Source of the DNA: Alphaproteobacteria bacterium
Lineage (GTDB): Bacteria > Pseudomonadota > Alphaproteobacteria > TMED109
Length of the DNA stretch: 64,000 bases
Assembly: GCA_965203385.1 (NCBI GenBank)
Contig: OZ241893.1
Coordinates: 269,986-333,985 of the forward strand
Direction: 5' to 3'
Positions 5,386 through 36,812 of the stretch are shown piece after piece. The position numbers and the translations under genes are program-made. Every line of letters begins with the position of its first letter. Position 1 is the first letter of the stretch. Under the pieces are notes generated by a model. The model made no database searches, was not told the origin of the DNA, and saw only the letters and a list, made by a program, of their open reading frames with translations.

Positions 5386-6853
5386 ATGATTACCGATACC
5401 TTGCATGTTGTCCATTCGCGCGCTGCCGGAGTGGACGTGCACAAGCACCAGCTGACGGCCACCGTCCGCTTGGCCACGGGTGCTGGCGAACCGATGTGCG
5501 AGACGCAGACGTTCCGTGCTTTGGGGCCTGGTCTGGATGCCTTGGCCGAATGGTTGACTTCGCATGCCGTCACCGCGGCGGCCATGGAAGGAACGGGTGT
5601 GTACTGGCGGGCCCCGCTGGACCGGCTGGAGGCCGCCGGGATCGAAGTGCAGTTACTGCACGCCCATCACGTCAAGCAGCTGCGGGGGCGCAAGACCGAC
5701 GTGGAGGACAGCCGCTGGCTGGCGCGCGTCTGTCAGTTCGGACTGTGCCGTCCGAGTCTGGTGCCGAATCAAGAATTCCATGGCCTGCGGCGGATGAGCC
5801 GCTATCGCCGCCAACTGGTGCAGAAACGTAGTCAGACACGGAACCGGATTCAGAAGGAGATCGACGATGCCGGGGTTCGGATCGGCGGCATCCTCTCGGA
5901 TGTCTTCGGCAAGAACGGCCGGATCATTCTGGAGGGCCTGGCGCGAGGCGAGGACCGCGAGACGATCCTCTCGCGTCTGACTCCGCACGTGGCGGAGAAA
6001 ATCAAGCTGCTCGGGGAGGCGCTCACCCTGAAGCTTAGCTGCTCGGGTCGTATGATTCTCAACCACCTGATGACGGACGAGCGCGCCGAACAGGCTCGCA
6101 TCGCGGCCGTCGAGGCGTTTGGCCACCGCCCACAGGCCGTACGCGTTTCGGCCGTACGCTTCCCAGCTGATCCTCCTCCAGACCCTGCCCGGGATCGACC
6201 GGATCGGCGCCGCCGCGATCCTCGCCGAGATCGGCGGTCCCGACGTCACGCCGTTCGCGTCCGCCGAGGCGTTTACGGCCTGGGCCGGACTGGCACCAGG
6301 CAATCACGAGAGCGCCGGCAAACGCCGGAAAGCCACCACGCTCAAGGGCTCCCGCTACCTGCGCACCCTGCTGGTGGAGGCCGCCCACGGAGCCGCACGT
6401 ACCAAGAACTGTCAATTCGCCAGCTACCGGAAGGTGTTGACCGCACGCCGTGGCTATAAGCGCGCCATCGTGGCCACCGCCCACAAGATGGCACGTGCTC
6501 TCTATGCCATGCTGCGGGACGATGTCCCGTATCGCGACCCCGACATCGATTACGAAGCCCTGCTGGTCGATCGCAATGCCCCCCGGTGGCTGCGACAACT
6601 CAAAGAGTGCGGCGTACTCAAGCCGGGAGTGCCAGGACGGCCCGACCCAAGTGCGGCGTGTGGGCGACCACACCTTCCGAATCGACTGGAGTGCCAGGAC
6701 GGCCCGACCCAAACCGGCCTGAAACTTCCTCTGCGCACGATCCCGGACCACCGGCCCGTTGTCCAAAAAACAGGGGAAGACAACACCGCCAAGCCCCGAG
6801 ATCCGGCGCAGATATCGACGACCCAAAGCGTGCGCTCTAGGCCGCCACGCTAG
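5386..6853 (+). pseudogene. IS110-family transposase, apparently frameshifted near 6100-6130
   Basis: The N-terminal DEDD-type half (GVDVHKHQL...MEGTGVYW) lies in the ORF 5332..6459 frame. The C-terminal half (LLQTLPGIDRIGAAAILAEIGG...AGLAPGNHESAGK) lies in the ORF 6119..6853 frame. A frame change is needed to join them. Confidence 0.75.
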
Positions 6854-7484: not shown

Positions 7485-8586
7485 ATGCAACCAGAGTGTA
7501 CCCCGAAGCAGTTGTGTTTTGAAGGCCTGGGTCGCCGTCGAGTGGAGGGGTGTTTCGACGGCGGTCGGCTGACGACGGACGGCGGCGTACTGCTCCTGCG
7601 GGAGGTCGACCAGCGGTTCCGCGTGACGGAGCGTCTGGCTGGCTGCTTCCAGGATCATCGCGGATCATCGCGCAGAAACGCGCATTGAGCATCGTCTGGA
7701 GACGCTGGTCGCCCAGCGGGTACTGGGGCTGGCGGCGGGGTATGAGGATTTGAACGATCACGACCGTCTGCGCACGGACAGCCTGCTGGCGCTGGCAAGC
7801 GGGTGCCAGGATCTCACCGGGGAACAGCGCCGCCGGGAGCGGGACCGGGGACAGGCGCTGGCGGGTTCCAGCACCCTGAACCGGCTCGAGCTCAGCGAGC
7901 CGGACACGGCGGCCGGAGACCGGTACAAGAAAATCGCGGCCGACCCGGCGGCGATGGACTCGCTGCTGGTGCAATTGTTCCTCGAGGCTCATGACGAACC
8001 GCCCGGGGAGATCGTGCTCGATCTGGATGCGACCAACGATCCGCTGTACGGGAACCAGGAGGGGCGGTTCTACCACGGCTAGTACGACGAATACTGCTAT
8101 CTTCCGTTGTACATCACTTGCGGCGACTTCGTCCTGTGCGCCCGGCTGCGTCCGGCCGATGTCGATCCGGCGAAAGGATCGGTGGAGGAACTGAAGCGGA
8201 TCGTGGCCCAGATCCGCGCCGTCTGGCCGAACCTCCCGATCCTGGTGCGCGGCGACGCCGGCTTCTGCCGCGATGAACTCTTGACCTGGTGTGAAGAGAC
8301 TGGCCTCGACTACGTGTTCGGTCTGGCCCGCAATAACCGTCTGGAAAAGTGGCTGGCGAAGGCGCTGCACAAGTCCCGGCGCCGCTGCGCCGCCACGGGG
8401 CAGGCGTCCCGGCGGTTCCGGGACCGGCGTTATCGGACCCAGAAATCCTGGAGCCGCACCCGCCGGGTGGTCGGCAAGGCCGAGTGGCTGCCGGGACTGA
8501 GAGGCGCGAATCCGCGTTTCGTCGTCACCAACCTGCCGGCGGATTCGGTCGGCGCACAGCCGCTGTACGAAAAAGTGTACTGCGCC
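7485..8586 (+). pseudogene. IS1380-family transposase, 5' part (10-bp duplication, in-frame TAG, then truncated by IS21 insertion)
   Basis: MQPECTPKQLCFEGLGRR...TTDGGVLLLREVD is followed by a frame break at the tandem GGATCATCGC duplication. LDLDATNDPLYGNQEG..FYHG is followed by TAG at 8080..8082. The same frame then continues through YDEYCYLPLY...EKVYCA. Confidence 0.85.
7652..7671. repeat. 10-bp tandem duplication (GGATCATCGC x2) that frameshifts the IS1380 transposase
   Basis: Deleting one copy restores FQDHRAETRIEHRLETLVAQRVLGLAAGYEDLNDHD in a single frame. Confidence 0.85.
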
Positions 8587-8793
8587 TGTTGGCGGCGAAA
8601 TAAAACGGCGGGATTCCGGCGGTAAGCCGCGCTTTTCCGAAGGTCGTTTCTTTCCCTATTGTACGACTGCCGGAGCTCCTGCCGCCGGGTGGCAGGAAGG
8701 CGCGTTCGGCGCCGAACGGATCACGGGTGGCTCAGCGGCCTCCTTGAGCCGGCCGGCCGCTGCCTTCGTTGGTTCCGGCCCGTCTGGCCGCTG

Positions 8794-10133: not shown

Positions 10134-10831
10134 CCGGCTTCGCGCCGGGTGCGCCACGAATCACCGTCGATGGTGATGAGGGCGGCGTCGTGCATCAGTC
10201 GGTCGACGGTGCCGGCGATGCCGGCGGCGCTGGGGAAGACGCGGTCCCACTGGGCGAAGGCCAGCGTGGTGGTGACCAGGGTGGAGCGGCGCTGGTAGCG
10301 CCGCGAGACGAGGGCGTAGAGGAGGTCGGCCGCGGGGCTCTTGAGGGTCACATATCCGATCTCGTCGAGGACCAGCAGGCGGGGCCGGGCGAGGATTCCG
10401 AGGCGGCGGCGCAGTTCGCTTCTCGAGGAGATCTCGACGAGTTTGTCGAGCAACTCCGGCGCTTTCTCGAAGCGGACGGTGTGGCCGTGCAGGAGCGCCT
10501 GGTGCGCGACGTTGGCGGCGATCATGGTCTTGCCGGTGCCCTGTCCGCCGACGAGCACGGCGTTGTCGGCCCGCTCGATGAAGGCGAGGCTCATCAGGGC
10601 CTCGACGCGGTCGCGGCTCAGGTCGCGCGGCCAGGTCCAGTCGAAGTCCGCCAGCGGCTTGAAGGCCGGCAGCCGCGCCCCGGCGCGGCGGCGGTCGTAG
10701 CTGCGGGTGTGGCGCACCCGTTCCTCGCTGGCGATCAGTTCCTCGACCCAGCCGGCGCTGCCGACCTCCTCCCAGCGTTCGAGCAGTCCGCGGAGGCCGA
10801 GGGCGGCGGCCCGTTTCCTGAGGTCGCTCAT
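10130..10831 (-). CDS. istB: IS21-family helper ATPase IstB
   Basis: 233 aa with a Walker A (VGGQGTGKT) and Walker B (LLVLDEIGY). The start overlaps the istA stop (ATGA). Confidence 0.9.
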   Translation of the reverse strand: MSDLRKRAAALGLRGLLERWEEVGSAGWVEELIASEERVRHTRSYDRRRAGARLPAFKPLADFDWTWPRDLSRDRVEALMSLAFIERADNAVLVGGQGTGKTMIAANVAHQALLHGHTVRFEKAPELLDKLVEISSRSELRRRLGILARPRLLVLDEIGYVTLKSPAADLLYALVSRRYQRRSTLVTTTLAFAQWDRVFPSAAGIAGTVDRLMHDAALITIDGDSWRTRREAG

Positions 10832-30557: not shown

Positions 30558-33362
30558 TCAGGCACCAATGATCTCCACATGTCGCGCGAGGATATCCCGA
30601 ATGTCCGCGGGCGCCTGCGATACACCCCAGAACCACCGGCCGAATCCGCCATGCGAGTTGACGGCCTCGACCCATTCGGCCAGGAAACGACGCTTGGTCC
30701 GGTCCTGATCGCTGTCTCGGCCCTTTGTCTCAAGCACCAGCATTCCACCCGACACGAGCCGGACGAGGAAATCGGGTCTGTATTTCCGCACCACGCCACG
30801 ATAGACGTAGAAGACCTCAAAACCGAGATGGTCGTTCTTCACCCAGGCTGCTACCTCGGGAGCGTGGTCGAGGACGTAGGCCTCGGACGCTTCCCATGTG
30901 CTGTCGAACACACAGAAATTGACGTGGCTGCGCTCCGTACGCTCACATGGCTTGCCCGTATACCAGGTCCGCATGTCGCCGGTGGCACGAATCGGGCGAT
31001 CCCGGTCGAACACGGGTTCCAGGCTCTCGGTGTTTTCGTAGCGGATCGCTTCCCAGATGTGCTGCACCACCTTGGTCATGTTGAGGGTAATGATGAGACG
31101 GCGCTTCAGGGCGTCGTTCAGGAACACTGCGGGCGCGATATCGATCTTGTCTGAGCGAATGAATTGCTCGATAAGCCGCACCAGTTGCGCCAGCAGGAAA
31201 ATCCGGTCACCCGCCCAGTCCTCTTGCATCTGGTCGTAGACGTCTCGTGCCGTCTCGAAAATGATGCGCTGAGTGCGGAACTCGCGCGCAAGGTTCTCCA
31301 AATCTATGGAGTCGATCTTCGTGATGTCAGGCTTGCCATCGACGATGGGGGCCATGTCCACCAACCGGGCAGTCAGGGCGGCGTTGAGCTCCAGGGATGT
31401 CACCCGTTCCCAATCGAGCAACAGGCGCGAACGATAGCCGTGATCGATGCGAACGATGTTCGGCCATGAAATCTCGTAAACCGCCTTCTCCGTTACCGAC
31501 TCGATGGCGGTCTTCGGTTTTGGCGGAGGCGGCGGGCCATTCTCTCCACCTTCATGAGGCAGGAAGGTGAAGGGAACACCGAAGACGTTGACGTATTCCG
31601 GCTCGAACAGCTTTGTATCCGGATTCACCTCGTAGGACGTGCGGCGCAGGCCGCGCCCAACCACCTGCTCGCAGAGGAGCTGGCTGGTGAATGCACGGAG
31701 GCCCATAATGTGGGTGACGGTCTTCGCATCCCACCCCTCCGAGAGCATCCCAACCGAGATCACGTTCTGTATCCCCTCGCCCGCGCGTCCGGGCTGGCCC
31801 ACCGTATCCACCTGCAATCGCAGAAATTCAGCCTGCTGCTTCCCGGTCAACCTGCGCACACGACCTGCGTCGGCGTCGACCTCGCCTGAGGCGATCTCGG
31901 CGATCGGCTCCTCGGCAGTCTCGGCTTTGTCGAGCGCTTTCGAATCGATATGCAGGGTTCTCTCCGGATCGCAAAGTTCGTCGATGCGAACTCGCTTGTG
32001 GTCGAACGCGTGCTTGATCCGGGCGGCCGTCTGGGTGCGGTTAGCGACAGTGATCATCACCGGCGGAGTCGCGCTGCTCCGCGCTTTCCAGGCCTTGGCT
32101 GTCTCGCGCCAGTCGTAGCCGAGAAGGTAGTAGCCGTTCATCACCAGGTCCGGCAAGGGTTCCTCCGCCCGGGCCGGCCGGTTCAGATCGTCCCTGACCT
32201 CGGGATCGTTGTAGATGTGATAGAGGCGGGACCTGTAGGTCTTGGCGTCGGGCACGGCGTCGTCACGGATCACAACCCGCGGCGTCTTGACCAGACCGGA
32301 CTCGATGGCGTCGTTCAATCCGAAATCGCTCACGATCCAGTCGAACAGCGCTTCCTCGGAATTCCGCTTGCCCGACGGTGTGAACGGCGTCGCAGAGAAG
32401 TCGAAGCAAGCGAGAATGCCGCGCACCCGGTGGATTCGATCGAGCCCTCCGATCCACTTGGTCGCTTCCTCAATGTCACCCTTGGCGATGCCCCTGACCT
32501 TGACACCGGGCTGGACCCGCCACGCGTGATGCGCCTCATCGTTGACGACCAGGATGTTCCTTGCGCGTGCCATGTCTCCGAGCACGTCACGGACGTAGGC
32601 TTCGTCGCTCTTGGCCCCGCGCTTGTCGACGCCGCGTCTGCCGGCGATCTTCTCGTCCGTCTCCCAGTTGAGCATGTGCCAGTTCCGGATCACCACCTTG
32701 CCCTGACGCAGCTTGTCGAACAGGGCGGAGGGCACGACGCGGAAGGCCGCGTAATAGTTCTCCGGATGAGACGGCACCAGAACGGCAAGGCGGTTTTTCA
32801 CCGTGAGACCGGGCGCGATAACAAGAACGTTCGCGGCAAACCGGGGGTCGCGCGGACTGGCGACCTTGTTCAATACCTGCCAGGCGATGACCATGGCCAT
32901 GACAACGGTCTTGCCGGAGCCGGTCGCCATCTTGGCGCACAGCCGCCGGAACGCGCCGCCGTCGGACGGGATCTCGACCCCCACGCGGTCGGCCGCCGGC
33001 GCTTCGGTCAGCCAGATCAGCGTTTCCACCGCCTCGATCTGGCAGAAAAAGAACTGCCGGGTCTCGAATTCCTCGGGGTCGTTCCAGTACTCCAGCAGGC
33101 GCTTCGTAACTCCCGTGATGCCGGGATAGCCGGCATCACGCCACGCCCGAACCCGGTTTCGAATTTGATTGACCAAGGGGATTTCGACCAATACGCCGGG
33201 ATCATCGAATGCGCTCGAGTCCGGAGAGGCCACCACGTATCCCGCGGGCCGCCGACCGTCCGCGAGGTCGAACAGGCGCGTCGCCCGGTCGTAGCGCCAA
33301 TGGCGCGCCGGCTCCTCGTAGGGAGAATTGACGATCAGACGGTCGATGGTTGTGCGCGCCAT
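30558..33362 (-). CDS. res: type III restriction enzyme Res-like subunit (SF2 helicase plus PD-(D/E)XK nuclease)
   Basis: 934 aa. Motifs are AKMATGSGKT (motif I), VVNDEAHHAW (DEAH box) and a C-terminal YRPDFLV...LVLETKG nuclease motif. Confidence 0.8.
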   Translation of the reverse strand: MARTTIDRLIVNSPYEEPARHWRYDRATRLFDLADGRRPAGYVVASPDSSAFDDPGVLVEIPLVNQIRNRVRAWRDAGYPGITGVTKRLLEYWNDPEEFETRQFFFCQIEAVETLIWLTEAPAADRVGVEIPSDGGAFRRLCAKMATGSGKTVVMAMVIAWQVLNKVASPRDPRFAANVLVIAPGLTVKNRLAVLVPSHPENYYAAFRVVPSALFDKLRQGKVVIRNWHMLNWETDEKIAGRRGVDKRGAKSDEAYVRDVLGDMARARNILVVNDEAHHAWRVQPGVKVRGIAKGDIEEATKWIGGLDRIHRVRGILACFDFSATPFTPSGKRNSEEALFDWIVSDFGLNDAIESGLVKTPRVVIRDDAVPDAKTYRSRLYHIYNDPEVRDDLNRPARAEEPLPDLVMNGYYLLGYDWRETAKAWKARSSATPPVMITVANRTQTAARIKHAFDHKRVRIDELCDPERTLHIDSKALDKAETAEEPIAEIASGEVDADAGRVRRLTGKQQAEFLRLQVDTVGQPGRAGEGIQNVISVGMLSEGWDAKTVTHIMGLRAFTSQLLCEQVVGRGLRRTSYEVNPDTKLFEPEYVNVFGVPFTFLPHEGGENGPPPPPKPKTAIESVTEKAVYEISWPNIVRIDHGYRSRLLLDWERVTSLELNAALTARLVDMAPIVDGKPDITKIDSIDLENLAREFRTQRIIFETARDVYDQMQEDWAGDRIFLLAQLVRLIEQFIRSDKIDIAPAVFLNDALKRRLIITLNMTKVVQHIWEAIRYENTESLEPVFDRDRPIRATGDMRTWYTGKPCERTERSHVNFCVFDSTWEASEAYVLDHAPEVAAWVKNDHLGFEVFYVYRGVVRKYRPDFLVRLVSGGMLVLETKGRDSDQDRTKRRFLAEWVEAVNSHGGFGRWFWGVSQAPADIRDILARHVEIIGA

Positions 33363-33724
33363 TACTCCGACTCCAGCTCCCGGCCGTTTTCGGGCAGGAT
33401 GGTCCGTTCAAGCAAATGGATCAGGTTCGGCAGATCTCCCTGTACCGTTTCCCAGACGATATCGGGGTCGATGTCGAAATACGCATGGACGAGTCGATTG
33501 CGCATCCCGACAATCCGCTCCCACGGTATTTCCGGAAAGTCCTGGCGTGTCGATTCGGTGACCTGCGTTGCCGCCTCGCCAACGATCTCGACACTCTTGA
33601 TCAGCGCAAGGACCAACTGGCGGTCGTTGTCGAGGTCGCCGCGCGTCCGTCCCTGCGCGAAGGACACTGCTTCGTGCGCGGCGTCCAGCATGTGCCGCAA
33701 CCGGACTTCGTCATCCTTGCTCAT
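33362..33724 (-). CDS. hepT: HepT-like (DUF86) HEPN ribonuclease toxin
   Basis: 120 aa. RNRLVHAYFDID contains the Rx4-6H HEPN motif. It overlaps mntA by 14 nt and res by 1 nt (TAATG). Confidence 0.8.
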   Translation of the reverse strand: MSKDDEVRLRHMLDAAHEAVSFAQGRTRGDLDNDRQLVLALIKSVEIVGEAATQVTESTRQDFPEIPWERIVGMRNRLVHAYFDIDPDIVWETVQGDLPNLIHLLERTILPENGRELESE

Positions 33725-34016
33725 ACTGGACTTCCGCCGTGTCGAGGACTTCCTGGCGGAAATAGCGGCTCAGATCCTTCGGCGTGCGCAAATCCACCTT
33801 GCGGCCGCCGAAAAGGGGCGACAAATCGATCTCCATACCGACCACACCCAACAGGCCGGGAACCCGGCCTGGCACAAACTCGACCAAGACATCGACATCG
33901 CTTTCGGGGCCGAAATCCGGCCGCAATGCCGAGCCGAAAATCGCCAGCCGCCGGATGCCGTGCGCCTGGCAGAAGTCGGCCAGTTCGGCTTTGTGGACAG
34001 ACAGTCTCGCGTTCAT
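33711..34016 (-). CDS. mntA: MntA-type minimal nucleotidyltransferase antitoxin
   Basis: 101 aa. IFGSALRPDFGPESDVDVLVEF is the GSx10DxD NTase motif. Confidence 0.8.
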   Translation of the reverse strand: MNARLSVHKAELADFCQAHGIRRLAIFGSALRPDFGPESDVDVLVEFVPGRVPGLLGVVGMEIDLSPLFGGRKVDLRTPKDLSRYFRQEVLDTAEVQYEQG

Positions 34017-34208
34017 GGCCAGATCGCCTTGTTAGTGTCGAAATCAACGGCAACGGTGTTTGCTTCCTGAATGATTCTCATCTTGTATCCACCTGCGTAA
34101 TCCAGCTTGGTATAGACCACTCCCTCGCAGTCTGAAGGCGTTTCCGCACTGCCTCGCCCATCAACTCTTCCAGCTGCCCAACCGCCCGTGACCGGTTCAC
34201 CCGCGCCA

Positions 34209-36812
34209 TCACGCCAACTCCACGATCTTCAGGCTCTCGATGCCACGATCGTCCACGATCTTGACCGCCGCACGGCCATGCTCGCCCGCCCCGAAGGGTA
34301 GGGAAACAGTACCGCGGTAGGCCTTGATCAGATCCTGATCGATCTCCGCCCTGAGGCTGTGCGCAAGCTTTGTCCAGTCATATTTGCTACCGACCAGCGG
34401 GAAGAACACTTGGCGCGGGAACAGGCTTCGTCCGTCATAGTCGGGATCGAGCATCCAGAGTGCGATCCGATCAGCGGCGCCGGATTCAACGTTTCCCGTC
34501 CTGGTATTGTAGTAGTCGAAGCCTTGGATCAGAACGCGAAACGTAACATCGCCAGTGCCGTCGCCCGCGATACGCTCAACGATTACGTCGGGCTGACCAA
34601 TCAGCCAGAAACTCTCGTTGCTGACCCTCGCTCTCTTGAGGTCATCGGTCAAGAGATCGGCGTTCATCTGCGCCTTCAGAAGGGTAACGCCAGGCCAGCG
34701 GGTTTCATCGATGTCCTTTGACGCTTCGGGATCAAACTGAAAGGCGGCGAAAACGATAATTTTGGGCTTCGGGACAAGATTCTGCGCTTCCTCAATCGCG
34801 TGTGCAACTTGACGTTGCTCCAGCGGTGCGTGGTCCGGCCCAAACGAAACTACGAGGCGGCCAGATTTTGAAGTGGCTGTGGCGTTGCGAGAACCGTCCA
34901 CCTCGCCATCGCCGGACCGCGCCTCGCCCTCGGCGTGCAGCCATTTCGCACCGGGAAGAGGCTCCAGACGTGTGAAGGCAATGCTCTGTCCGGCCTTGCC
35001 GCGAATTCCGGTCTTGAGCAGTTCATCGCGCCAGTCGCCCTGCCGCACGGTCGCGCCTGAGCGTGCGACGGAAGCGTCGGCCTGTAAGGGCGCCGGTCCC
35101 TCAATGTCGTCGAGAGGCCTGACTGCTGGGGCGGGAACAGCCTCAACCGTAAACGGACCTGTAACTCTGGCTGTGCTGCGGTCGATATTGGGTTGGTCGT
35201 AGAGTACTTCTTGTGGCGCATGACGGCTAATCGCCACCTCAATCTCTTCATGCGCCATGCCGTCCCGAATATCGGGGTTGTTTGCGATGGAGCCGAGCGT
35301 GACGTGTGGCACGGTTGTATATTTGAAGCCACTGCTGACGCCTTCTTTTGCGTGAGCCAATTCGTAGTAGTCGAAATACGCGACCATTAGCCGCTGCTTC
35401 GCGAGGGTGAGCGCGACGCGGGACGTATCACAAGTGATCCATCTGCGCCCCCACTGTTCGGCGACATAGGCCGTCGTTCCGCTACCACAGGTTGGGTCGA
35501 ATACCAAGTCGCCGGGATCAGTAGTCATCAAAAGACAGCGTTCGAGGATTTTCGTGGCAGTTTGCACGGCATAGGCCTTGCCCCTTGCCCCCTGCGTATC
35601 TGTCCACTGATTGGTAATTTCCATGACTGGATAGTCATCGGCAAAAAATACATATCTTGGCACCGTCTTTAACCAACGAATTCGTTTTGCAGCAATCAGC
35701 TTTTTTATGCCTTCAGGAGTGGTTTTCCAACTTGTCGTCGGGTTTGGATACGCTCGCCTGCCTTCCAACTCAAATTCAAAGTGACAGGATGCCGTGTATC
35801 CGGTAGCCATTAGATCTATGAGATTAAAGTAACGAGCTTTGTCCCGATCGTCTCTTTGAGATACACAGGCGGCCTTTACAATATCTCCGTTTGGCATCAG
35901 CGCAGACGAAAATTGTGTGTCTTCACCATAGCTTCTGGGAACAAACAGTCGGTGGAACTTGACTTTGTCCTTATCTCTAGCATACCAGATTAGGTAATCG
36001 GCTACGCCCGGCAAATGGGCTGAGTTGAGCGGAACCTTTGTTCTGAAAGAAATCAACGACATGAAATTTGATGGTCCAAAAACCTCGTCCATAACGTTGC
36101 GGACTAGATGCACATTCTCGTCGCCGATTTGCACAAAACAGCTTCCGCCCTCATGCAGAAGTTCTCGCATTAGCAATAACCGATCCCGCAGATAGGTAAG
36201 ATAGGAATGTATACCAAGTTCCCAAGTATCTCGGAAAGCACGAATGGTCTCCGGTTGCTGCGTCAGATCCTCATCCCGACCGTCTTTCACATTGGGTTTA
36301 TTCACAAAAGGCTGGAAGTTTGAACGGTAGCTAATCCCGTAAGGCGGATCGAGATAAACCATCTGGACCTGACTACCGAGACCTTCTTTTTCGATCAAGC
36401 TGTTCATCACCAGCAGACTATCGCCCGCAACCAGGCGATTCGACCAATTACGTCGATGTTTATAGAATTCGATAGCTTGGCGAAGTGGCAGATTTTCCTC
36501 AGGCGAGTCAAACAGAGAAAACTGTTCTTCTACTTTTTTCTGCTTTCCTACCGCCTCAATAATGGTGCGCGGGTCAATTTTTTCGTGTATATGCAACGAG
36601 ACGGTCGGGGCTTTGAACGACGTGTGCTCTGCCTTGCCGGCCCATGACAGATGTGGATCAAGGTGCGCATCATGAACGTAGGCTCTTCTCCCGGCATCTT
36701 GATCTGTCTCGGGCGTAACTAAGCCGACAGGCGGATTGTTCACCCGTTCCTTATCAGTGTGAGCGTAGGTCTCGATTTCTCGCCCGGCCTTCTTCCCGCT
36801 TCGTCGTACCAT
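34209..36812 (-). CDS. mod: site-specific DNA methyltransferase, type III Mod-like (N6A/N4C beta class) with a long C-terminal extension
   Basis: 867 aa. The DPPY motif (VYLDPPYGISY) precedes FDPTCGSGTTAYVAEQ, giving a IV-then-I motif order. Confidence 0.8.
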   Translation of the reverse strand: MVRRSGKKAGREIETYAHTDKERVNNPPVGLVTPETDQDAGRRAYVHDAHLDPHLSWAGKAEHTSFKAPTVSLHIHEKIDPRTIIEAVGKQKKVEEQFSLFDSPEENLPLRQAIEFYKHRRNWSNRLVAGDSLLVMNSLIEKEGLGSQVQMVYLDPPYGISYRSNFQPFVNKPNVKDGRDEDLTQQPETIRAFRDTWELGIHSYLTYLRDRLLLMRELLHEGGSCFVQIGDENVHLVRNVMDEVFGPSNFMSLISFRTKVPLNSAHLPGVADYLIWYARDKDKVKFHRLFVPRSYGEDTQFSSALMPNGDIVKAACVSQRDDRDKARYFNLIDLMATGYTASCHFEFELEGRRAYPNPTTSWKTTPEGIKKLIAAKRIRWLKTVPRYVFFADDYPVMEITNQWTDTQGARGKAYAVQTATKILERCLLMTTDPGDLVFDPTCGSGTTAYVAEQWGRRWITCDTSRVALTLAKQRLMVAYFDYYELAHAKEGVSSGFKYTTVPHVTLGSIANNPDIRDGMAHEEIEVAISRHAPQEVLYDQPNIDRSTARVTGPFTVEAVPAPAVRPLDDIEGPAPLQADASVARSGATVRQGDWRDELLKTGIRGKAGQSIAFTRLEPLPGAKWLHAEGEARSGDGEVDGSRNATATSKSGRLVVSFGPDHAPLEQRQVAHAIEEAQNLVPKPKIIVFAAFQFDPEASKDIDETRWPGVTLLKAQMNADLLTDDLKRARVSNESFWLIGQPDVIVERIAGDGTGDVTFRVLIQGFDYYNTRTGNVESGAADRIALWMLDPDYDGRSLFPRQVFFPLVGSKYDWTKLAHSLRAEIDQDLIKAYRGTVSLPFGAGEHGRAAVKIVDDRGIESLKIVELA

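Follow-up and report, generated by a model that had tools for sequence, protein, structure and literature searches.

We analysed a stretch of 64,000 nucleotides (nt), referred to below as the window, from an alphaproteobacterium of the TMED109 lineage (NCBI GenBank assembly GCA_965203385.1, contig OZ241893.1, positions 269,986 to 333,985 of the forward strand). It holds a type III-like restriction-modification (R-M) operon in which a toxin-antitoxin pair, mntA and hepT, is lodged between the methyltransferase gene mod and the restriction gene res. Two micro-open reading frames (micro-ORFs), here named u1 and u2, fill the 192-nt spacer that separates the mod stop from the mntA ATG, and it is to these that most of this report is devoted. 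In all likelihood they are not small genes of their own but the two ends of one much longer gene that has lost its middle.

Operon layout and junctions

All six cistrons lie on the minus strand and follow one another in the order mod, u1, u2, mntA, hepT, res from 36812 to 30558 without a single intergenic base (Table 1; positions are in window numbering). The mod stop and the u1 start share one nt in the sequence TGATG, u1 and u2 overlap by 4 nt (ATGA), as do u2 and mntA (again ATGA), mntA overlaps hepT by 14 nt, and hepT and res share one nt in TAATG. The frame of u1 contains an additional in-frame GTG at 34212. Hence the overlap or abutment of stop and start codons that is looked for in a translationally coupled polycistron is present at all five junctions of the window. 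An earlier note on this DNA, made from the sequence alone, had described this gapless six-cistron chain, and on re-reading the minus strand its coordinates and overlaps all proved correct.

Table 1. Features of the operon in the window, including the very probable remnants of a PDC-S35 gene (amino acids, aa)
Feature	Position	Strand	Description
mod	34209..36812	-	867 aa, intact
5' PDC-S35 remnant (predicted)	34152..34212	-	native start (GTG 34212 / ATG 34209) and first ~20 codons; first half of u1
Deletion junction (predicted)	34148..34151	-	pairwise BLAST against G003: 612 nt replaced by 2 nt, net -610, frameshift
3' PDC-S35 remnant (predicted)	34013..34147	-	native frame, 45 codons, open; last 22 codons are u2
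Micro-ORF u1	34078..34209	-	ATG 34209 to TGA 34078, 43 codons
Micro-ORF u2	34013..34081	-	ATG 34081 to TGA 34013, 22 codons
mntA	33711..34016	-	101 aa, intact
hepT	33362..33724	-	120 aa, intact
res	30558..33362	-	934 aa, intact

The micro-ORFs match both ends of a TIR gene

Neither u1 nor u2 gave any Pfam match. A DNA search of 40 related genomes returned matches that were split around the micro-ORFs. In a genome of the same genus (G003), the end of mod together with the first 59 nt of u1 matches one place, and the remainder of u1, u2 and mntA match some 610 nt further on. There, the interval between mod and mntA is filled by a single ORF of 269 aa that reaches exactly from the mod stop to the mntA start. 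Its product carries the domain PF10137 (CAP12-PCTIR_TIR; 5.1e-40) at residues 123-241 and matches over its whole length the PADLOC model PDC-S35, a single-gene phage defence candidate, at 1.1e-84. Pairwise BLAST of the window against this locus, with which it shares 82% DNA identity from the end of mod into the beginning of the gene, pairs query position 110 with subject position 113 and query position 113 with subject position 726. The region coding for the TIR domain in G003 falls inside the deleted 612 nt, and PF10137 is absent from u1 and u2.

On either side of the junction the family can still be recognized. The N-terminal piece can be aligned with the beginning of 13 intact family members (MARV.K..A.ERL..L..EA), and a 33-nt stretch spanning the junction of the mod end with the 5' remnant is identical to its counterpart at locus L017. 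The C-terminal piece aligns to the C-terminus of 13 full-length members (ETPSDYDGVVYT.LDD.G.WK..L.QELKAAGFD.DAN), and a GTG at 34120 within it opens an alternative ORF of 35 codons. The first micro-ORF is composed of 20 native codons followed by 23 out-of-frame codons that run across the 3' remnant until the first stop. That stop, a TGA, sits in an ATGA (Met-Lys/Arg) that is also found in the intact genes of G003 and L060, and the ATG of u2 is an internal Met codon common to several intact relatives. When the whole genome of the window was searched for PDC-S35, the remnant was the sole match (family residues 225-267, E 8.9e-9) and no second copy was found. We also looked at the breakpoints for microhomology or repeats and found none that was convincing; a microhomology-mediated deletion was rejected for want of such a repeat.

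Because both ends align yet the TIR domain is absent, we hold with considerable confidence that u1 and u2 are the two ends of one CAP12/PycTIR-like TIR gene of about 270 codons, a member of the PDC-S35 family, left after an internal deletion. Judged by its sequence, what is left is a predicted pseudogene of this family and not a functional member. The earlier note had offered, as one of two readings, that the micro-ORFs were the remains of a small frameshifted gene. Gene remains they appear to be, although the gene was of some 270 codons and the lesion a net deletion of 610 nt that shifts the frame. For purposes of annotation, u1 and u2 would best be recorded as a single pseudogene (PDC-S35 remnant), not as small proteins.

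Inherited junctions and an accidental one

A search with the G003 protein yielded 20 loci, to which L060 was added from a separate genome search for the res family. Intact or near-intact operons of the order mod-TIR-mntA-hepT-res were present in L019 (an Albidovulum metagenome-assembled genome, MAG), L022 (a gammaproteobacterial MAG) and L024 (a Nitrospira MAG), and partial ones in L017, L020, L028 and L060. The junctions of these relatives are as in the window: TGATG between mod and the TIR gene, ATGA between the TIR gene and mntA, a 14-nt overlap of mntA with hepT, and TA[A/G][A/G]TG between hepT and res. Because the same junctions recur in homologous operons of other genomes, four of the five junctions in the window (mod with the next ORF, the upstream ORF with mntA, mntA with hepT, and hepT with res) read as inherited architecture.

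The overlap of u1 with u2 is a by-product of the frameshift reaching the ancestral ATGA. When all internal deletions of at least 300 nt were simulated in G003-like and L060-like genes, about 20% ended on a stop overlapping a native-frame ATG and another third were in frame, so that selection is not needed to explain this overlap. A comparison of homologous operons for conservation of the micro-ORFs and overlaps, which had been proposed as a check, thus gives a divided answer: the micro-ORFs are absent from them and the outer stop/start overlaps are kept. The gapless chain is real but mostly inherited, because u1 and u2 are very probably the ends of a gutted TIR gene in an otherwise conserved operon.

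The combination of the TIR gene with mntA and hepT appears, from its distribution, to be a cassette of a sub-lineage and not a rule of the family. A sample of PDC-S35 genes drawn with a hidden Markov model from 16 genomes of the phylum contained none (0/16) with mntA/hepT directly downstream. An obligate three-gene system of TIR, MntA and HepT was rejected on this count.

The trio was also seen without mod and res, at L021, L023, L027 and L033. At L021 it stands between two ORFs of ~1500 aa, the downstream one of which resembles a large helicase/methylase-type restriction protein (putative).

Decay of the remnant

Within the C-terminal remnant, 7 of 17 near-invariant positions are changed, among them the invariant W, K, A and F (e.g. 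W->Y, K->N, F->V), and its identity to intact members is 0.36-0.52 as against 0.57-0.75 among the intact members themselves. Such values would be expected of a sequence that is decaying; nevertheless, several points weigh against the reading of a deleted and decaying gene. At the DNA level, the rate of the remnant segment relative to mntA is ~2.0x on the window branch, and the comparison genomes already show 1.6-1.8x; the excess is weak because the segment outpaces mntA even in intact genes. The argument from decay would thus lean mainly on the replaced invariant residues, spread over only 44 codons. The 3' remnant still reads open in its native frame, and the Shine-Dalgarno sequence of u2 is fair, so that some residual selection on translation through the region may persist. 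Furthermore, the deletion allele was not met with elsewhere: metagenome contigs contained no exact copy of the 22-mer across the junction, no strain-level relative sharing the allele turned up, and no other record has an identical MntA protein, in searches by exact matching that may leave out the organism's own or very near genomes.

The same TIR gene has been truncated independently in other operons, leaving residues 187-269 in G009, 145-269 in L032 and 243-269 in L036. This recurrent, independent decay of the TIR gene beside intact MntA/HepT suggests that the TIR effector is the more dispensable or the costlier partner.

Other lesions were observed in the same-genus copies of the operon in G003 and G009. 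In G003, an insertion of ~3 kb (5980-8990 of L012) parts mntA from hepT and contains a 397-aa ORF resembling an IS1595-type transposase (putative), and res is shortened to about 50 codons. In G009 (L011 7714-8190), hepT is frameshifted, only the final 83 codons of the TIR gene are left, there is no mod, and res is truncated as in G003.

Intact genes of the operon

The identities that had been given to mod, mntA, hepT and res were borne out by family matches and motifs. Mod is a type III-like DNA methyltransferase by its matches to PF01555 (N6_N4_Mtase; 2.3e-30) and to the PADLOC model MTase_III PDLC03632 (3.4e-143); it aligns at full length to Mod of L022 and L019, and the longest homopolymer run in its gene is A6. 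Res, with a superfamily 2 (SF2) helicase and a C-terminal nuclease, matches PF04851 (ResIII) and scores 1124 bits against the NCBIfam model NF046055 (BPTD_3080 restriction endonuclease family; cut-off 800). It is 86.6% identical to Res of L022 over the full length, and its match to the PADLOC REase_III model is weak (4e-9). A Mod methyltransferase and a Res helicase-nuclease are thus encoded on the same strand with mod upstream, as looked for in a type III R-M system.

MntA, a minimal nucleotidyltransferase antitoxin, matches PF01909 (NTP_transf_2) at 2.6e-9 and PADLOC PDC-S09 at 9.5e-24, carries the GSX10DXD motif (GSALRPDFGPESDVD, residues 28-42) and is 76-88% identical to MntA of the relatives. 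HepT, a HEPN RNase toxin, matches PF01934 (HepT-like) at 5.9e-26 and carries the RX4HXY motif (RNRLVHAY, residues 75-82). The HEPN gene lies next to the MNT gene, with a 14-nt overlap, and such adjacency is asked of a type VII toxin-antitoxin system. Both proteins fell short of the NCBIfam equivalog cut-off of 60 bits (MntA_antitoxin 29.6, HepT_toxin 38.3), and from these scores the pair is assigned to a divergent subfamily.

The mod-res junction in related operons

The place occupied by u1, u2, mntA and hepT was surveyed in 80 metagenomic loci (L083-L162) that encode a close relative of the Res N-terminus, 71 of which extend across the junction from mod into res. The junction is empty in 33 of the 71, and in 28 of those 33 the mod stop and the res start share one base; a further three have a short spacer of 26-38 nt. 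MntA/HepT alone occupy the junction in 11 (635-647 nt), where mntA starts on the mod stop and there is no room for micro-ORFs, and other cargo is found in 24. Toxin-antitoxin or defence cargo overall is present in 35 of the 71. The other cargo includes a DUF4258 pair, further MNT/HEPN pairs (by sequence inspection), a GIY-YIG nuclease, a KilA-N protein (PDC-S22), DUF6978 with DUF1828 (PDC-M24B-like), a PIN-containing trio, an IrrE-peptidase with DUF4411, AAA_15/AAA_21 ATPases and an OLD-family nuclease; matches to PADLOC PDC-M41/M30 and to OLD/Gabija-like ATPases were also obtained. As a rule, the first cargo gene begins at the mod stop or within ~10 nt of it, and the last one finishes at the res start. 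ORFs resembling u1 or u2 were found neither in the 71 metagenomic operons nor among the ~90 related operons examined. Empty sites also occur in whole genomes, namely G034 (L053) and G138 (L056).

Variable genes therefore lie between core genes, with both empty and differently filled relatives, which is the pattern by which embedded cargo is recognized. Read from these arrangements, the mod-res junction in this BPTD_3080-type clade behaves as a cargo slot, or hotspot, and about half of the clade holds cargo between mod and res. That MntA/HepT pairs are sometimes found inside R-M operons, as the earlier note had stated, is supported both by published work on HEPN genes within such operons (PMC3710099) and by the operons of the survey that contain this pair alone.

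Several individual loci deserve mention. At L149 (5596-5989), mntA stands without a recognizable hepT between mod and res (392-nt gap), an antitoxin-only state. In G007 (L013 4857-5510), of the same genus as the window and with intact mod and res, there is a very divergent MNT/HEPN-like pair (MntA 36% identical) that may be degenerate. The genome of the window itself has, outside the window, a second, distant BPTD_3080-like res (G000:C1:1777222-1780158; L065) that scores 583 bits, below the cut-off; its gene order, res then mod, is opposite to that of the operon in the window and is shared by most family members in the class sample.

In G037 (L014), the terminal 39-68 nt of mod occur three times (85-97% identical), at 6161-6219, 7850-7888 and 7980-8038; the copies comprise the true mod end, a copy just before a TcmP/DUF5131 cassette and a copy just before a PDC-S35 gene. 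This arrangement suggests that cassettes may travel with, or stack via recombination at, the conserved mod 3' end. The mod gene of the same locus has a G9 homopolymer (~10690-10705) exactly at a shift of frame (residues ~90-97). Tracts of this type are of the kind that makes type III mod genes phase-variable. A 129-aa ORF resembling 23S-rRNA-intervening-sequence proteins and bAvd (PF05635, 1.8e-28) is also found there at 8342-8731, in another frame within the mod ORF; it lies in an insertion of ~133 aa relative to Mod of the window, and the mod frame is open throughout.

Expression signals and alternative explanations

The spacer has no Rfam match at E up to 1 and folds no better than shuffled sequences (z = +0.31); a structured RNA or riboswitch within its 192 nt was rejected on both counts. 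No promoter-like site was found upstream of mntA on the minus strand, and terminator-like matches were fewer than expected from shuffles and located inside mod. With no such signal at the internal junctions, an internal promoter or terminator around the spacer was likewise rejected. Shine-Dalgarno energies were -5.9 kcal/mol for u1, -5.9 for u2, -6.6 for res and -4.0 for mntA, against a background mean of -3.3; the match of mntA is thus the weakest in the chain and near background. The start of u1 is preceded by an inherited GGAG 8 nt upstream and that of u2 by AGGTGG 7 nt upstream.

It is conceivable that the remnant persists because it serves as a ribosome relay: mntA, and through it hepT and res, would depend for ribosomes on termination-reinitiation through translated u1 and u2, such that only deletions preserving the chain survived. 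The gapless chain and the expression signals just described, namely the poor Shine-Dalgarno match of mntA, the better sequences retained before u1 and u2 and the lack of a promoter-like site before mntA, are what such a relay would call for, and every independent TIR truncation that we saw retains the 3' end adjoining mntA. However, the share of random deletions in a G003-like gene that yields the same stop/ATG overlap, or remains in frame, renders selection superfluous. Moreover, hepT and res are coupled behind mntA, so that a loss of coupling would lower all three and would not release the toxin; in G005 the mntA/hepT pair is found by itself with no TIR 3' end, and in 11 operons it begins right at the mod stop; and the peptide sequences themselves are decaying. 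We consider selection for such a relay to be unlikely, though by no means negligible, and a PDC-S35 pseudogene whose overlaps are for the most part inherited remains our preferred reading of u1 and u2.

The two micro-ORFs might instead encode genuine small proteins that have independent functions, for example as coupling peptides or small regulators. Both starts do possess Shine-Dalgarno-like sequences and both ORFs overlap their neighbours; against this stand the failure to match Pfam, the lack of a counterpart in the ~90 related operons, and the fact that the second half of u1 is out of frame, the conserved frame being the native one. We regard this explanation as very improbable, and the proposal of real coupling peptides in the earlier note is contradicted by the micro-ORFs being missing from every homologous operon examined. 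Least probable of all is an artefact of assembly or sequencing in a strain that really has an intact TIR gene, for although the genome is in 4 contigs, a clean loss of 610 nt within a unique gene is atypical of assembly error and the flanking remnant is substituted at many positions that are invariant elsewhere, which is what inactivation would lead one to expect.

A model for the operon

We propose a horizontally mobile R-M operon of a type III-like kind, in which mod is followed by res and cargo is embedded at the junction between them. The ancestral cargo would have been a PDC-S35 gene and the type VII pair mntA and hepT, all linked by overlapping stop and start codons. The PDC-S35 product, with a helical N-domain and a TIR domain of the CAP12/PycTIR type, is a candidate anti-phage effector that would degrade nicotinamide adenine dinucleotide. 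The net 610-nt deletion would have taken out the entire TIR domain and caused a frameshift, leaving the first 20 and last 45 codons; u1 would then begin at the native start and pass out of frame at the junction, and u2 would be the native-frame tail read from an internal Met.

The whole operon would be expressed as one transcript from upstream of mod, with translation handed on by termination-reinitiation at each overlap. It is plausible that translation of res is chained to that of mod in this way, which fits the conserved overlaps. In the empty state, where res starts on the mod stop, Res synthesis would depend on, and lag behind, Mod synthesis, and cargo would have been inserted in a manner that preserves the relay from mod to res. 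Following the deletion, ribosomes leaving mod would probably start at u1, stop at 34078 and perhaps restart at 34081 and once more at the mntA ATG. Should these restarts occur, most of the native coupling to mntA, hepT and res would persist. By analogy with the characterized system (PMC7641770), the pair would be a type VII toxin-antitoxin module: MntA would AMPylate the Tyr of the RX4HXY motif of HepT and neutralize the RNase toxicity of that protein.

It is tempting to join these elements into a single, more speculative scheme. The junction would be a dedicated slot in which cassettes are swapped and stacked by recombination between the conserved last 40-70 nt of mod and the res start, with overlaps of 1-4 nt always restored; cargo and Res would form one ribosome relay from mod, and u1/u2 would be what is left of that relay at the lost TIR gene, still sustaining expression of mntA, hepT and res. 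Taken as a whole, this scheme is rather doubtful. The wider clade offers a compact natural system for asking whether translation through upstream cargo meters the synthesis of Res.

Comparison with known systems

The embedding of defence and toxin-antitoxin genes in multi-gene systems has been exploited by Payne et al. under the name of guilt-by-embedding, in a screen of Hma, BREX, DISARM and type I R-M (bioRxiv 10.1101/2024.01.29.577857). The window resembles those systems in that candidate defence and toxin-antitoxin genes are nested between R-M core genes, and differs from them in that the host is a type III-like mod-res operon, that all junctions are stop/start overlaps and that PDC-S35 is a 200-nt remnant. 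The PDC-S35 and PDC-S09 models are contained in PADLOC-DB v2.0.0, the database to which Payne et al. added PDC models; neither was found in bioRxiv 10.1101/2024.01.29.577857 or its supplements, and a literature search found no paper naming PDC-S35.

The HepT/MntA type VII toxin-antitoxin system was described in Shewanella oneidensis (SO_3166/SO_3165), from which the definitions of the GSX10DXD and RX4HXY motifs are taken (PMC7641770). As in that organism, mntA precedes and overlaps hepT, the families are PF01909 and PF01934, and both motifs are present; unlike the Shewanella pair, that of the window falls below the NCBIfam cut-offs, has no room for a separate promoter and would be expressed from within an R-M operon.

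A 2013 study described R-M operons that contain embedded HEPN genes, for example PrrC in the type Ic hsd locus, and proposed that these act jointly with R-M upon failure of the latter (PMC3710099). In the window, too, a HEPN RNase is encoded between modification and restriction genes, which suggests a second line of defence working jointly with R-M. PrrC is an ABC-ATPase-HEPN fusion restrained by the R-M complex, whereas the HEPN toxin of the window would, by analogy, have its own AMPylating antitoxin, and nothing ties its activity to Mod or Res.

In classical type III R-M systems such as EcoP1I and EcoP15I, mod comes before res, and Res is an SF2 helicase-nuclease that needs Mod. Cleavage in type III systems depends on ATP and requires Mod, and hemimethylation gives protection. 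The window shares with them a mod gene that precedes res in one operon. It differs in that its Res belongs to the separate BPTD_3080 family and in that the mod-res junction often holds cargo in its clade. The subunit composition of the classical enzymes is given in PMC3333885.

Taken together, these comparisons identify the locus as a further case of a known kind of embedding, in a type III-like host and with one cargo gene reduced to a stub. The idea of embedded defence genes is thereby extended from type I R-M, BREX, DISARM and Hma to type III-like systems.

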